This document shows positions 59,301 to 62,300 of a DNA stretch of 64,000 nucleotides, piece after piece (the stretch's first letter is position 1; every line of letters starts with the position of its first letter). A program made the position numbers. Source of the stretch: an uncultured bacterium (GTDB taxonomy: Bacteria; Krumholzibacteriota; Krumholzibacteriia; JACNKJ01); contig CAVOFT010000001.1 of NCBI GenBank assembly GCA_963695095.1, positions 3,546,529 to 3,610,528 on the forward strand. Direction: 5' to 3'.

Positions 59301-62300
59301 GCTCCCCCCCGCCGGTGGGCCAGCGATCGAAAACGATCGTTCACTATTCGGACGAACCAGGCTTGACACAAATTTCACAAGAGCTAGATTGTGATCGATC
59401 GCTTACCGCATCTATGGGTCTTCAACCCTGGTTAGGTCGACATGGCCAAGAGCAGCGGAATGCAGACCGGCGGCTCCAGCCGCCGCCAGTGCCTGATCGC
59501 CTCCGCCAGCCGCCTCTTCGCCGAGCACGGCTACGAGGGCACGACCATCCGCCAGATCGCGCGCCAGTGCGGGATCACCGAGGCGGCCATCTACAAGCAC
59601 TTCGATGGCAAGGATCAGCTCTACGAGGAAGTGATCCACAGCAAGTCCCGCCAGCACGAGATCCGCGAACACCTCGCGGCGCAGACGGGGATCGCCGGCA
59701 TCGAGGACGTGCTCTTCCTGGTGGCCCGGCACATCCTGGCCACCGCGCGCGAGGACCCCGATCTCCTGCGCATGCTCCTCTACTCGAGCCTCGAGGGCTT
59801 TCGCGGCTCGACCTTGCTCTACCGCGAGTTCCGCCAGCCCTACATCGCCTACCTGCGCGAGGAGCTGCGCGAGCGCATTGCAAGCGCTGAGATCCGCCCG
59901 ATCAATCCCTTCATCACCAGCCGCTGCTTCGTGGGCATGGTGATGGACTGCGCCCTCAACGTCGAGCTGTGGAACAACCTGGAGAGCACCGCCTACTCGG
60001 CCGACGCGGTGATCCAGAACAACGTCCCCATCTTCGCCCGCGGCTTGCGCCTGGACGCCGCCGCCGAGATCGAAGCCTGAGGAAGGAGAGCTGCCATGCG
60101 CCGACTCCTGCCCCCCCTGCTCGTCCTCCTCGCCGCCGCCTGGCTCACGGGCTGCAGCGACGAGAAGACGCCGCCGGTGGCGGACCAGCCGACTGAACAG
60201 GACCCCTGCCTCGACTGCCATGGCGACAGGGAACTGCTGATGGCCATGCTGCCCGAGGAGGTCGCCCGCATCACCACGCGCGGCGACGGCTGAGGCGGCG
60301 ATGTGCCCGAGCTGGCAGCTTGGGAAGCGATCTACATCGGCGGCACGGATGGCGCGGCCTTCCTCGCAGATCCCAACCACGGCGCCGCGGCGCTGGCCTG
60401 CCTCGACTGCCACGGCGGCGACAGCGCCCAGGGCGACTTCGGGGACTACGCGGCCGAGCACGCGCTCGTGATCGCAACGCCCAGCGCGGCCGGCGCCTGC
60501 GACGCCTGCCACGCCGAGATTGCCGCCACGAACGCGAACAGCCTGCACACGAATCTCTGGGGCGAGAAGGCGGCGGTGGAGCGACGTGGCCAGTGCTCCT
60601 TCGACCAGACGCCCGCCGCCCAGGCCGGTTTCGCGCGCAACTGCGGCGACTGCCACACCACCTGCGGCCAGTGCCACGTGAGCCGGCCGCTCAGCGTGGG
60701 CGGCGGTTTCGTCGATGCGCACAAGTTCCGCCGCACGCCCAACATGACCGAGAACTGCACGGCCTGCCACGGCAGCCGCATCGGCCACGATTACACGGGC
60801 GAGGACCTGAGCGTGCTGCCGGACATCCATTACGCCCGCGGCCATGCCTGCGAACTCTGCCACTGGGCGGGCGAGATGCACGGCGACGGCCTGAGCACGA
60901 ACGCGTCCGGCCACTACGAGCACCGCTACGAGGTGGTCAGCATGCCGCGCTGCGAGAAGTGCCACGTGAAGGAGATCATGGACGAGGGCCACGCGGGCGA
61001 CCCCGAATGGAACGGCGACTACCACGCCGCCCACTGGGAGGGCTGGACGGGCGTGGAGCTGCAGTGCCAGGTCTGCCACAGCCAGCCCTACAAGAATTGC
61101 AGCTTCTGTCACGTCGAGGCGCCGTCGGGCTACACGATCGAGCCCAGCGTGCTGGCGCTCAAGATCGGCAAGAACACCGAGACCGACACGCGTGCCGAGT
61201 ACGACTACACCGTCGTGCGCCACGTCCCCATCCACCCGGATACCTACGAGACCTGGCCGCTGCCGCTGCCGGGCTACGCGGACGAAGCGACCTGGAAGTA
61301 CGCCTCGCCGCACAACATCCGGCGCTGGACGGCCCAGACCACGGTGGAGGCCGGGCAGAGCTGCGGCCGGAGCTGCCATGACAGCCCCGGCCAGGAGCGG
61401 GGCTTCTACCTGCGCGAGAGCGACCTCAAGGACGAGTTCGGCGTCGACCTGATCGACGCGCCGGCCAACGCGGACGTGGTGATTCGCGCGTCGGACTTGC
61501 ACTGAACACCGTCGCCGGTCCCGGACCGGCGGCCCGATCGTTGTGATGAGGAAGGGGCTCGCCCGACGAGCCTAAAACCGGGCCCTTGCCAGGGCCGAGA
61601 GAAAGCGAGTGAAAATGATGAAGCGATTCTGGGCACTCCTGCTCATCCCGATGCTGGCCGTGACCCTCTTCGTCGGCTGCTCCGACGACGATCCGGCCAC
61701 GCCCACGGATAACACGCTTACACCCCTCCAGGAGTTCACGGCCGTCGCCGACGCCGGCCTGGGCTACCTGAACAGCGCGGATGCGCCGGGGGTGAAGGAC
61801 TACACCTGGTTCTCCAGCCAGACCGGCGGCTTCGACGGCTTCACCATCCTGGATGTCCGCACGTCCATCGACTTCGGCAACGGCCACATCGCCGATGCGA
61901 TCAACACGAGCCTTGCCTCGCTGCTGGCCGACATCGACGCCGGCACGATCCCCGTGGACAAACCCTTCATGGTGGTCTGCTACACCGGCCAGTCCGCTGG
62001 CCATGTGGTTGCGGCCCTGCGCATGCTTGGCTACACGGCCTGGAGCTACAAGTTCGGCATGAGCGCCTGGCACACGTCGCTGGACGGGCAGTGGGAAGCC
62101 AACGCGGGCGCGGTCAACGGCGCGGCGATGGCCGATGCCGGCGTGGCCATCGAAACCGCGGTGAACACCCCGGTCACGACCTATGCCTGGCCCGACCTGG
62201 GTCTCACGGTGGACACGGCGGCCGAGGCCGTCGAAGCGCGCGTGGCCGCCACCCTGACCGCTGGCTTCAAGGCCCTGTCTTTCGCCGAGATGAATGCCTA

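Follow-up and report, generated by a model that had tools for sequence, protein, structure and literature searches.

A probable selenocysteine-containing multihaem cytochrome lipoprotein encoded beside a rhodanese gene in uncultured Krumholzibacteriota

The window analysed here is a stretch of 64,000 nucleotides from the genome of an uncultured bacterium of the phylum Krumholzibacteriota (GenBank assembly GCA_963695095.1, contig CAVOFT010000001.1), and all positions are counted from its first nucleotide. Towards its 3' end lie a regulator gene, a gene for a multihaem c-type cytochrome with an in-frame TGA, and a gene for a lipoprotein with rhodanese domains. The main features of this region are the following:

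59363..59390, + strand: match to a sigma-70-like promoter (TTGACA-16-TAGATT) 5' of the TetR gene; a consensus match only, and a possible operon promoter
59442..60080, + strand: gene of a TetR-family regulator (Pfam TetR_N, 67 bits), ending 16 nt 5' of the cytochrome start
60096..61505, + strand: predicted complete selenoprotein gene for a 469-aa lipoprotein multihaem cytochrome c, counted with its internal UGA (Sec66) and its closing TGA stop
60096..60155, + strand: signal peptide and lipobox L-T-G-C20, with C20 kept in 32/32 Sec-type rows of the alignment and G19 in 94%
60291..60293, + strand: TGA, predicted to be read as selenocysteine 66 inside D-G-U-G-G; an in-frame TGA conserved across homologues
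61609..62643, + strand: partner gene for a 344-aa lipoprotein with two rhodanese domains (Pfam Rhodanese) and active-site C124 (CYTGQSA) and C292 (CWTGQTS)

The promoter match was the single site found, against 0.4 expected in shuffled sequences, and the cytochrome gene is probably co-transcribed with the upstream TetR regulator. A TetR gene also stands directly 5' of the cytochrome in two related loci (L120 and L129), and regulators of TetR, MerR and ArsR type are found near several others. No RNA sequencing run is listed for the locus; the two runs considered are of DNA, each with 6% of the sampled words.

The first open reading frame (60096-60293) comprises 65 aa and is closed by the TGA at 60291-60293. 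The same frame runs on past this codon to the stop at 61503-61505 with no other interruption, and a separate 400-aa gene has been called from the GTG at 60303, three codons past the TGA. The preliminary description of this locus had joined both gene calls (g03148 and g03149) into one lipoprotein of 469 aa, and the single frame, the lone TGA and the lipobox bear this out. It could be argued that the TGA is a true stop, which would leave either a pseudogene or a pair of genes, the first for a 65-aa monohaem lipoprotein and the second for a 400-aa cytochrome starting from GTG 60303. In favour of this, gene callers and NCBI list the pieces separately, with relatives recorded as a 401-aa 'hypothetical protein', and a GAGG lies 7 nt 5' of GTG 60303. 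On the other hand, c-type cytochromes require export for the attachment of haem. Haem site 1 and the lipobox are both 5' of the TGA, and the piece beyond it, lacking any signal peptide, could not receive haem by itself.

The Sec site is characterised by the motif DG-U-GG-x-V-P-x-L-E-A-W-E. A conserved R-[GE]-D-G-U-G-G-[DE]-V-P motif and a single in-frame TGA in 7 of 7 matches spanning the site had already been reported in the preliminary description, and both observations have been confirmed and extended in larger samples. The pattern ...DG-TGA-GG.V[PSA].L.AWE is present in 30/30 loci from the phylum, one TGA is found in 52 of the 53 site-spanning matches (201 Krumholzibacteriota genomes), and the codon at the Sec position of 80 related loci from species-representative genomes is TGA in 76, TGT in 1, TGG in 1 and CGG in 1, with no equivalent in 1; these three sets overlap, as they were drawn from shared species genomes. 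DG-U-GG likewise precedes three matches that had seemed to start only at residue 131-133. The interrupting stop is TGA in every case, and TAA or TAG has never been seen there.

The absence of homologues with cysteine at this position was the weak point stated in the preliminary description, and it has been resolved by finding them. At the DNA level, L114 has TGT at the Sec site; at the protein level, eight representatives carry C-GG (P0124, P0126, P0158, P0161, P0179, P0191, P0199 and P0205) and P0149 carries C-SG. Four representatives known as protein sequences only (P0063, P0145, P0156 and P0170) show W at this site, for which the codon may be TGG or TGA. Besides, Sec is replaced by residues incapable of chalcogen chemistry: Trp in L084/P0030, Arg in L111 and Tyr in P0129. 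In the tree the Trp, Arg and Tyr forms branch from within the Sec forms, Sec having been lost several times, and this repeated replacement indicates that the cytochrome can be maintained without it, possibly as a simple carrier of electrons. An alternative genetic code, with TGA standing for Trp or Gly, was considered and ruled out because the cytochrome gene itself and many neighbouring genes terminate in TGA.

The RNA downstream of the UGA could fold into a hairpin:

60306..60324, + strand: SECIS-like hairpin CCCGAGCU-GGC-AGCUUGGG, beginning 12 nt 3' of the UGA

A hairpin with a compensatory variant had been noticed earlier and is present, together with a covarying pair; its distance from the UGA, given then as about 17 nt, is 12 nt. 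Across the family the structure consists of 8 pairs at +15 to +34, in which 97.6% of the cells are paired versus 91.4 +/- 1.2 in shuffles (0/500 reach 97.6%), and pairing falls to 16-54% when the pattern is slid along the sequence. Pair 20-30 is A-U in 15 sequences and C-G in 11, the 3' member changing by a synonymous Ala codon that tracks the non-synonymous change of the 5' member; this covariation concerns one pair in related sequences, and codon constraint (P-E-L...A-W-E) also conserves the same stretch. The variant CCC(C/G/A)CGC / GCGUGGG is present in relatives, most of which have a GGA triloop, and in distant phyla the hairpin is retained with a shifted register. The selD gene of the same genome serves as a control: it carries an in-frame TGA, and 11 nt beyond this codon stands GGGUCC-GGA-GGACCU, whose triloop and spacing equal those of the consensus hairpin of the cytochrome family. 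When 59500-62000 was compared with Rfam (E<=10), there were two matches at chance level and no SECIS family, bacterial SECIS elements being poorly modelled.

The genome has the complete machinery for selenocysteine, with all components above the curated cut-offs: tRNA-Sec (71.9 bits), selB (336.8 bits, or 362 with neighbouring stretches), selA (429.8 bits) and selD (342.4 bits). selB exceeds its cut-off in 62 of the 66 genomes that carry the cytochrome, and the remaining four genomes are 81-94% complete. The gene is near-universal in the phylum (184/201 genomes), so its presence does not separate carriers from non-carriers.

The conserved TGA, the conservation on its flanks, the covarying hairpin, the Sec machinery and the Cys forms together make a strong sequence-based case that UGA 66 is decoded as selenocysteine. 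A true stop is accordingly extremely improbable: in all loci residues are conserved right beside the TGA on both sides, no other stop codon takes its place, the Cys forms naturally read straight through, the gene carries a SECIS-like hairpin, and the genome encodes the complete Sec machinery. It is therefore very likely that the two open reading frames (60096-60293 and 60303-61505) encode one selenocysteine-containing multihaem cytochrome lipoprotein.

The haem-binding motifs of the read-through product are distributed on both sides of the UGA as follows:

60207..60221, + strand: haem site 1, CLDCH (aa 38-42), 5' of the UGA; invariant in 44/44 rows
60399..61379, + strand: haem sites 2-11, nine CxxCH and one CGRSCH (aa 423-428), in a region that also holds ten conserved non-motif histidines

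Residue 66 falls between haem sites 1 and 2, where the preliminary description had placed it. That description also counted about ten CxxCH and called the protein decahaem. The ten CxxCH are indeed present, but there is in addition a CxxxCH (C423-x3-C427-H428) that is invariant in 44/44 aligned homologues, which makes an undecahaem cytochrome more likely than a decahaem one. Pfam again yields matches to Cytochrome_C7 and Cytochrom_c3_2 alone (PF14522 with 29.7 bits, cut-off 24.8; PF14537 with 28.6 bits, cut-off 25). The aligned homologues have no conserved Cys other than those of the lipobox and haem motifs, and no Lys is invariant, K333 and K356 being 94% conserved in the Sec-type rows.

The AF2 model of the cytochrome reached a pLDDT of 82.9 and a pTM of 0.80, and the Sec loop (residues 61-70) was predicted with moderate confidence (mean pLDDT 65). 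In this model the C-terminal core appears to resemble in fold the octahaem tetrathionate reductase (OTR): in VIA-align, aa 135-469 matched 1sp3_A with Z 7.9 and an rmsd of 3.8 A over 233 residues, Z values of 7-8 being common for best matches, and the second-best match of the core had Z 3.7. Foldseek against the PDB found nothing at E<=0.001, its best and non-significant match being again the octahaem tetrathionate reductase (E 0.14). The PDB sequence search with the single protein gave nothing meaningful, and with the family profile it gave generic multihaem proteins (best 3ov0, E 1.7e-10 over repeated CxxCH), with 1sp3 absent.

Eleven invariant haem sites are accompanied by only ten conserved non-motif histidines, and among the aligned homologues no conserved Cys, Met or Lys could supply the eleventh distal ligand. 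From this imbalance and from the glycine-rich, mobile Sec loop comes the tentative, rather doubtful proposal that Sec66 may be the distal (sixth) ligand of one c-type haem. The protein would then hold a natural His/selenolate-ligated haem which, as the catalytic centre, would take sulfane sulfur directly from the rhodanese persulfide. If this were so, it would be a second, independently evolved union of selenium and haem for the reduction of S-S bonds, and it would be common across Krumholzibacteriota, Calditrichota, KSB1 and phyla allied to them.

The same surplus of one haem site over the conserved histidines would also suit a selenocysteine that axially ligates one haem or tunes its redox behaviour and is not a catalytic nucleophile, the cytochrome being an electron conduit, possibly extracellular, and the rhodanese unrelated. 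The nested lineages in which Trp, Arg or Tyr stands in place of Sec while the protein is otherwise retained, and the restriction of the Pfam matches to electron-carrier cytochrome families, agree with such a role. However, the cost of selenocysteine is usually borne for catalysis, TGA has been kept in nearly all the loci compared (76/80), and the synteny and fusions with rhodanese domains are very strong; it is quite unlikely that Sec acts merely in this way.

The conserved rhodanese partner was overlooked in the preliminary description and is the main clue to the function of the cytochrome. Its product matches PF00581 Rhodanese with 67.6 bits in 2 stretches, has weak NCBIfam matches to GlpE and PspE, and both C124 and C292 are invariant in 22/22 homologues. 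A rhodanese lipoprotein with 2, 4 or 6 domains lies directly 3' of the cytochrome in 58 of the 65 loci scanned, which belong to several phyla; in L122 and L124 the rhodanese gene is 5' instead, and in P0184 and P0198 the cytochrome is fused to two rhodanese domains. None of the three non-Sec loci with flanking sequence (L111 with Arg, L114 with Cys, and L107) has an adjoining rhodanese gene. Functional coupling of the cytochrome to its rhodanese partner is considered likely, and the synteny suggests a widespread, so far unannotated enzyme that serves the anaerobic respiration of sulfur or selenium.

As regards the electron supply, the operon has no quinol dehydrogenase gene within the window. 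In L115 and L122 the genes that follow the cytochrome encode a Tat 4Fe-4S protein and a membrane subunit of cytochrome b561 type, and further multihaem cytochromes are encoded near the gene in L101, L102, L113 and L121.

The reading that is favoured on balance is that of an eleven-haem Sec lipoprotein acting as a rhodanese-coupled sulfur or polysulfide reductase. The cytochrome would be exported by the Sec translocon and lipid-anchored via Cys20, after decoding of UGA 66 by SelB and tRNA-Sec under the direction of the GC-rich hairpin that starts 12 nt downstream. The downstream lipoprotein would contribute two rhodanese domains, predicted to be catalytically competent. A rhodanese Cys would take sulfane sulfur from polysulfide, thiosulfate or species derived from elemental sulfur and store it as a persulfide; the Sec66 selenolate, placed in its flexible glycine-rich loop, would attack the persulfide sulfur to give a Se-S adduct; and electrons from the quinol pool, conducted along the eleven-haem wire, would reduce this adduct and release sulfide. 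The net result would be a periplasmic sulfur/polysulfide reductase, analogous to Geobacter MccSep (ExtKL) with ExtH and not homologous to it in the Sec region. The reductive direction, the direct transfer from rhodanese to Sec and the cellular face of the cytochrome are parts of the scheme that we infer. That sulfane sulfur or polysulfide is specifically the substrate, as the rhodanese partner and the analogy suggest, has in our estimation an even chance of being correct.

Rhodaneses also handle selenium, thiosulfate and cyanide, and two other substrates have to be weighed. The same selenoprotein could reduce thiosulfate or tetrathionate or, working backwards, could oxidise thiosulfate or sulfide in the way TsdA does. 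In this case Sec would attack an S-S bond, and the rhodanese would split thiosulfate into sulfite and bound sulfane sulfur. Rhodanese is the classical thiosulfate sulfurtransferase, as the weak matches to GlpE and PspE recall, and the fold of the core is nearest to the octahaem tetrathionate reductase, with the limits of the Z value and of the Foldseek match given above. The module of FeS protein and cytochrome b in L115 and L122 has what we take to be the layout of thiosulfate/polysulfide reductases, which is reversible. Nevertheless, the active haem of OTR is Lys-ligated and the enzyme has 8 haems, whereas no Lys is invariant in the present family; and the OTR model TIGR04315, which requires more than 375 bits, does not match the protein, matching the genome only elsewhere and with at most 15.6 bits. 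These points make a thiosulfate or tetrathionate enzyme unlikely, even if Sec-containing members of the OTR family exist according to PMC13188914.

The second possibility is a reductase of selenium or tellurium oxyanions, or a system handling selenium for detoxification, respiration or selenium supply, in which the rhodanese would carry selenium as perselenide and the cytochrome would reduce selenite. The TetR-, MerR- and ArsR-type regulators near several loci would suit a response to stress or a detoxification. Selenium is, however, scarce in most habitats, and a wire of eleven haems with links to quinol-oxidising modules suits bulk respiration better than the handling of a trace element; this function is very improbable. 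According to PMC13510729, MccSep also reduces selenite, but polysulfide is preferred; PMC5877670 ties the Geobacter ext cluster to the reduction of selenite and tellurite and notes that rhodanese can carry selenium.

The family is large, with 776 protein clusters and, at species level, 307 genome loci, mainly from Krumholzibacteriota and neighbouring phyla, with members in Calditrichota, KSB1 and Eisenbacteria. Frames of 700-960 aa that appeared as fusions in the phylum search were rejected, being upstream stop-free stretches in GC-rich DNA. In public annotation the members figure as truncated 'hypothetical protein' (the 401-aa relatives) or are mislabelled as sulfurtransferase. The protein-cluster search with the natural Cys form P0126 gave generic 'cytochrome c family protein' clusters only, mostly from Bacteroidota. 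In NCBIfam, where the preliminary description had no hits at E<=0.01, a scan of the protein at E<=1 still gave signal-peptide noise only. The three NCBIfam models that cover cytochrome selenoproteins (ExtKL/MccSep, GSU2204 and OTR) all fail to match the family, and the GSU2204 family CXXCH selenoprotein model NF041027 matches neither the protein nor its own genome. Only three cytochrome-type selenoprotein families are listed in the available part of a May 2026 review (PMC13188914), and no description of the present one was found in the open-access article texts searched, among which the MccSep paper, the 2026 review and the ExtI paper alone were relevant. It is very likely a further family of cytochrome selenoproteins, with a different architecture, that uses Sec almost exclusively.

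A predicted Sec-containing cytochrome tied to a multi-rhodanese lipoprotein across several, mostly uncultured phyla has in this way been overlooked entirely by public annotation. Should the function proposed here prove right, a respiratory capacity to reduce sulfur or a related chalcogen could be assigned to Krumholzibacteriota, Calditrichota, KSB1, Eisenbacteria and further inhabitants of sediments and wetlands. Selenium, haem and rhodanese would be a recurrent solution to the reduction of S-S bonds, and the family would offer a natural test case for selenolate-ligated haem.

Several known systems can be compared with the one proposed here. TsdA and SoxAX are thiosulfate-converting cytochromes with a His/Cys-ligated haem, as stated in PMC13510729. 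In them, as is proposed here, a chalcogen side chain beside or ligating a c-type haem is the catalytic centre for S-S chemistry; unlike the present protein they are dihaem and use Cys instead of Sec, and NCBIfam and PDB sequence searches detected no sequence relation. The logic of a rhodanese-type sulfur carrier that serves a reductase is also that of Sud/Psr of Wolinella succinogenes, where a periplasmic carrier hands polysulfide sulfur to a membrane-linked reductase. Psr, however, is a molybdopterin enzyme without Sec and not a cytochrome, and Sud is a single-domain soluble protein, whereas the lipoprotein partner described here carries 2 to 6 rhodanese domains. No structure gave a better match to the core (aa 135-469) than the OTR of Shewanella oneidensis (1sp3), which, like the proposed enzyme, is a multihaem protein acting on S-S compounds; it has 8 haems versus 11 here, and nothing in the alignment corresponds to the extra N-terminal two-haem part with the Sec loop.

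MccSep (published 2026) is, to our knowledge, the only multihaem selenoenzyme characterised so far. According to PMC13510729, it is a Sec-dependent multihaem polysulfide reductase with 5 haems and a D-G-U-P loop, its Sec lying in a C-terminal Ig-like domain. Like MccSep/ExtKL (GSU2937-2936 of Geobacter sulfurreducens), the present protein is predicted to be a periplasmic multihaem cytochrome c; in both, an in-frame UGA interrupts the gene, which is habitually split or truncated in annotation, and the Geobacter cluster also includes a gene for a rhodanese-like lipoprotein, ExtH (PMC5877670). The claim that the two are distinct nevertheless holds. NF040886, which requires more than 250 bits, does not match the protein at E<=1 and matches its genome only elsewhere (best 35.9 bits); there are 11 haem sites instead of 5; Sec occupies a loop near the N terminus, after haem 1 and before haem 2; and only the tripeptide Asp-Gly-Sec is shared, DGUP corresponding to DGUGG. 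Besides, MccSep has a cleaved signal peptide whereas the present protein is a lipoprotein, and within this window there are no porin or bc-type genes. As no conserved non-motif Cys stands beside Sec to form a His/Cys haem or to act as a resolving residue, the mechanism of MccSep is not transferable as it stands. The distribution differs as well, MccSep/ExtKL belonging mainly to Desulfobacterota and Nitrospirota and the family described here mainly to Krumholzibacteriota and neighbouring phyla.

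The reading frame of the cytochrome gene at 60096-61505 continues straight past the TGA at 60291-60293 in the window DNA, and reading this TGA as selenocysteine (Sec66) yields a protein of 469 residues, in agreement with the preliminary description, where two gene calls were taken as a single frame interrupted by one TGA. The features needed for what follows are these:

Features around the cytochrome gene, in window coordinates unless another contig is named
57862-59265, forward strand: CCA-adding/poly(A) polymerase-type enzyme with HD domain (PolyA_pol, HD, PolyA_pol_RNAbd), just upstream of the TetR gene
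59363-59390, forward strand: promoter-like site, consensus match only
59442-60080, forward strand: TetR regulator, ending 16 nt upstream of the cytochrome gene
60096-60293, forward strand: ORF of 65 aa ending in TGA (table 11)
60303-61505, forward strand: ORF of 400 aa in the identical frame (table 11)
60306-60324, forward strand: hairpin CCCGAGCU-GGC-AGCUUGGG, starting 12 nt after the UGA
61609-62643, forward strand: lipoprotein of 344 aa with two rhodanese domains, downstream of the cytochrome gene
Beyond the rhodanese gene, convergent: FAA-hydrolase gene
G000:C1:69142-70107 (source genome, locus L133), reverse strand: selD (GG-U-SAK, itself a selenoprotein), with in-frame UGA and hairpin

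The CCA-adding-type gene appears unrelated to the cytochrome, and further upstream two long open frames overlap on opposite strands (52287-57680, reverse, 1797 aa; 54060-57293, forward, 1077 aa).

The 469-residue product carries a lipoprotein signal with the lipobox L-T-G-C20, ten CxxCH motifs (one 5' of the TGA, the remainder 3' of it) and one CxxxCH (C423-G-R-S-C427-H428). As all 44 aligned homologues keep the CxxxCH, the haem sites are probably eleven; the earlier count of about ten stands for the CxxCH motifs and has to be extended by this further site. In homologues the CxxCH count varies from 8 to 13 through inserts. Pfam again returned Cytochrome_C7 and Cytochrom_c3_2 only, and the NCBIfam scan gave nothing except signal-peptide noise even at E<=1, so that the product is indeed not NF040886 (ExtKL, the same protein as MccSep of Geobacter sulfurreducens). 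The sequence thus predicts a cytochrome that is exported and anchored by lipid, and whose Sec sits in a glycine-rich loop separating haems 1 and 2.

Among 201 genomes from this phylum the protein was found in 66, and 52 of the 53 site-spanning matches listed have a single in-frame TGA, one of the 52 holding an in-frame TAG as well; the lone exception, in genome G040, has TGG. Three matches apparently starting at residue 131-133 also have DG-U-GG upstream in frame, and DG-TGA-GG.V[PSA].L.AWE is present in all 30 of the loci excised from this search. When a single genome from each of 185,579 species was scanned, 307 loci encoding a relative were located, and in the best 80 of these the site codon is TGA in 76, TGT (Cys, L114), TGG (Trp, L084) and CGG (Arg, L111) in one each, with no equivalent in L107. 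Both sets share species genomes and are not independent; L084, for instance, lies on the same contig as the G040 match (L129 / G040:C80). The stop at the site is invariably TGA, never TAA or TAG, in the loci examined. In L084 both flanking residues have changed as well (GDA-W-V-G against GDG-U-G-G), and this looks like a lineage that dropped Sec without becoming a Cys form. Besides, a further in-frame TGA stands in L110:3944-4336, some 130 codons from the start of the gene; it could be another Sec, a break or an error.

Cysteine at the aligned site occurs in full-length database representatives, as C-GG in P0124, P0126, P0158, P0161, P0179, P0191, P0199 and P0205 and as C-SG in P0149. Together with L114, these nine sequences overturn the earlier statement that no Cys-form homologue was seen and remove the weakness that it represented. 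The alternative, that the TGA is not read through and two genes are present, is extremely improbable: the stretch 3' of the TGA is without a signal peptide, and haem attachment to c-type cytochromes requires export. The cytochrome is therefore very probably, on sequence grounds, a selenoprotein in which UGA is read as Sec.

An 8-bp hairpin extends from +15 to +34 counted from the U of the UGA, and its start lies nearer to the UGA than the approximately 17 nt first reported. The loop is GGC in the window and GGA in most relatives. In a set of 26 distinct sequences, paired cells make up 97.6%, against 91.4 +/- 1.2% in column shuffles (none of 500 as high) and 16-54% with slid partners. One pair covaries (A-U in 15 sequences, C-G in 11), its 5' change being non-synonymous (Glu to Ala, Pro or Thr) and its 3' change synonymous in an Ala codon. 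This covariation would favour Sec decoding, and is supportive rather than decisive because it concerns a single pair in related sequences under coding constraint. A hairpin is retained in more distant phyla, its register shifted by 3 nt. The selD gene of this genome has one in-frame TGA, with GGGUCC-GGA-GGACCU 11 nt beyond it; the triloop is identical to that of the cytochrome family and the spacing nearly so, and this hairpin could act as a template to find more selenoprotein genes in the genome. Related to this, the genome encodes tRNA-Sec (71.9 bits), SelA (429.8 bits), SelD (342.4 bits) and SelB (336.8 bits; 362 including neighbouring stretches). SelB is above cut-off in 184 of the 201 phylum genomes, which is consistent with Sec use and does not discriminate carriers from non-carriers.

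A word-indexed search, with 8000 candidates scored, gave 776 protein clusters at E<=0.001; of the 120 listed, almost every one has a length of 330-400 aa and starts at MPELEAWE, and is thus cut at the TGA. An exhaustive search of representatives at 50% identity returned 309 hits at E<=0.001, of which 206 reach E<=1e-10 and 94 reach E<=1e-30. The closest relatives are named 'hypothetical protein' (401 aa) by NCBI, and many fragments (e.g. P0010, P0016, P0018) bear the JGI label 'thiosulfate/3-mercaptopyruvate sulfurtransferase', probably transferred from rhodanese genes that are fused or adjacent. The best 80 of the 307 loci are mostly labelled Krumholzibacteriia, the others KSB1, Calditrichota, Eisenbacteria, Latescibacteria, Dehalococcoidia, Lentisphaeria, Neomarinimicrobiota, Ignavibacteria and Gemmatimonadales, such metagenome-bin labels being only partly reliable. 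In a quick maximum-likelihood tree (59 rows, midpoint-rooted), Sec forms occupy both halves and the Trp, Arg, Tyr and Cys forms are nested among them, with P0030 (Trp) sister to L065, L111 (Arg) to L102 and P0129 (Tyr) to L126. On this tree at least 6-7 changes of the Sec label are needed, which suggests that Sec has been replaced repeatedly within the family; with long branches and unsupported forks both numerous, no order of events is drawn beyond that.

The rhodanese gene is a regular neighbour. Of 76 related loci scanned downstream, 65 have an ORF of 100 aa or more whose start is no further than 500 nt away, and 58 of these ORFs encode proteins with a lipoprotein signal and 2, 4 or 6 rhodanese domains. 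All 22 two-domain homologues compared keep both of the rhodanese active-site cysteines. Moreover, P0184 and P0198 join the cytochrome and two C-terminal rhodanese domains in one polypeptide, and P0170, with W at the Sec site in the protein sequence, opens with the end of a rhodanese domain followed by the cytochrome. The seven remaining ORFs are at L066 and L068 (likely wrong-frame picks in GC-rich DNA), L110, L111, L114 (no family match), L115 and L122; the rhodanese gene is upstream in L122 and L124. No adjacent rhodanese was found at L111, L114 and L107, the three non-Sec loci with usable flanks, which fits a link between Sec and rhodanese, the number being small. L111:3962-5260, sister of the Sec form L102, has lost the adjacent rhodanese gene and is followed by a multihaem cytochrome with an Ig-like tail, which in L102 comes after the rhodanese gene. 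The regulators near the loci differ (TetR, MerR, ArsR-type, sigma-54 activator with PAS domains), and further multihaem cytochromes are common neighbours. In the Dehalococcoidia-labelled L115:4154-6814 and L122:2864-6772 the operon reads (rhodanese)-Sec cytochrome-Tat 4Fe-4S protein-cytochrome b561-type subunit, a complete quinol-linked module around the selenoprotein. In some lineages the cytochrome gene is in this way tied directly to genes of a quinol-oxidising module of FeS protein and cytochrome b. No electron-input gene lies within the window.

An AlphaFold2 model built with 44 full-length homologues has a mean pLDDT of 82.9 and a pTM of 0.80, the Sec loop being moderate (about 65). Foldseek returned nothing at E<=0.001 with this model. 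In VIA-align, over 48,161 chains, 1sp3_A (the octahaem tetrathionate reductase, OTR, of Shewanella) stands out with Z 7.9, a level that VIA-align calls common for best hits (rmsd 3.8 A, 233 residues, model 135-469), the next matches having Z 3.7. Since this chain alone stands out, the core (135-469) is predicted to be OTR-like in fold, and the N-terminal 134 residues, with two haems and the Sec loop, would be an addition to it.

Regarding the haem ligands, ten non-motif His are conserved (H95, H122, H151, H209, H245, H262, H310, H313, H376, H406) against eleven proximal His, and among the aligned homologues no conserved Cys or Met fills the missing position, Lys being conserved only at about 94%; one haem would therefore either have Sec itself as its ligand or keep a site free for substrate. 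In the proposed route the rhodanese would take up sulfane sulfur as a persulfide, the Sec66 selenolate would attack the bound sulfur and the haem wire would reduce the Se-S adduct to sulfide. Sud with Psr follows the same logic of sulfur carrier to reductase. It is also that of MccSep with ExtH, the rhodanese-like lipoprotein of the Geobacter cluster (PMC5877670). Sulfane-sulfur or polysulfide reduction has about an even chance of being the function. Against the reading count the lack of any resolving cysteine and the substitution of Trp, Arg or Tyr for Sec in nested lineages whose protein is otherwise retained; the single covarying pair, the common level of the fold Z and the missing electron-input gene in the window also weigh against it. 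Thiosulfate or tetrathionate chemistry, in either direction, is favoured by the OTR-like fold and seems unlikely overall; a non-catalytic role of Sec is distinctly improbable, and selenium or tellurium oxyanions are a highly improbable substrate.

Cytochromes appear in three table entries of a May 2026 review of prokaryotic selenoproteins, namely ExtKL (NF040886), GSU2204 (NF041027) and OTR (TIGR04315) (PMC13188914). None of these models matches the cytochrome at E<=1; across its own genome NF040886 and TIGR04315 match elsewhere only, below cut-offs, and NF041027 has no match. A different cytochrome gene at G000:C1:1070819-1071610 (forward strand, L135/L136) reaches 35.9 and 17.5 bits with NF040886, below the cut-off, and has no in-frame stop. 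In the literature searched, which lay outside subscription journals and the supplements of relevant papers, no description of this family was found, the relevant items being only the MccSep paper (PMC13510729), the 2026 review (PMC13188914) and the ExtI paper. The cytochrome very probably represents one more family of multihaem cytochrome selenoproteins, which differs in architecture, has a rhodanese as partner, occurs widely in poorly known phyla and is unseen by current annotation. MccSep, as described in PMC13510729, has five haems instead of eleven haem sites, Sec325 in the D-G-U-P loop of an Ig-like domain at the C terminus instead of Sec66 between haems 1 and 2, and a conserved Cys239 ligating the active haem, whereas the present family has no conserved Cys other than those of the haem motifs and the lipobox. 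The Asp-Gly-Sec tripeptide common to both proteins is noteworthy and may be convergent.
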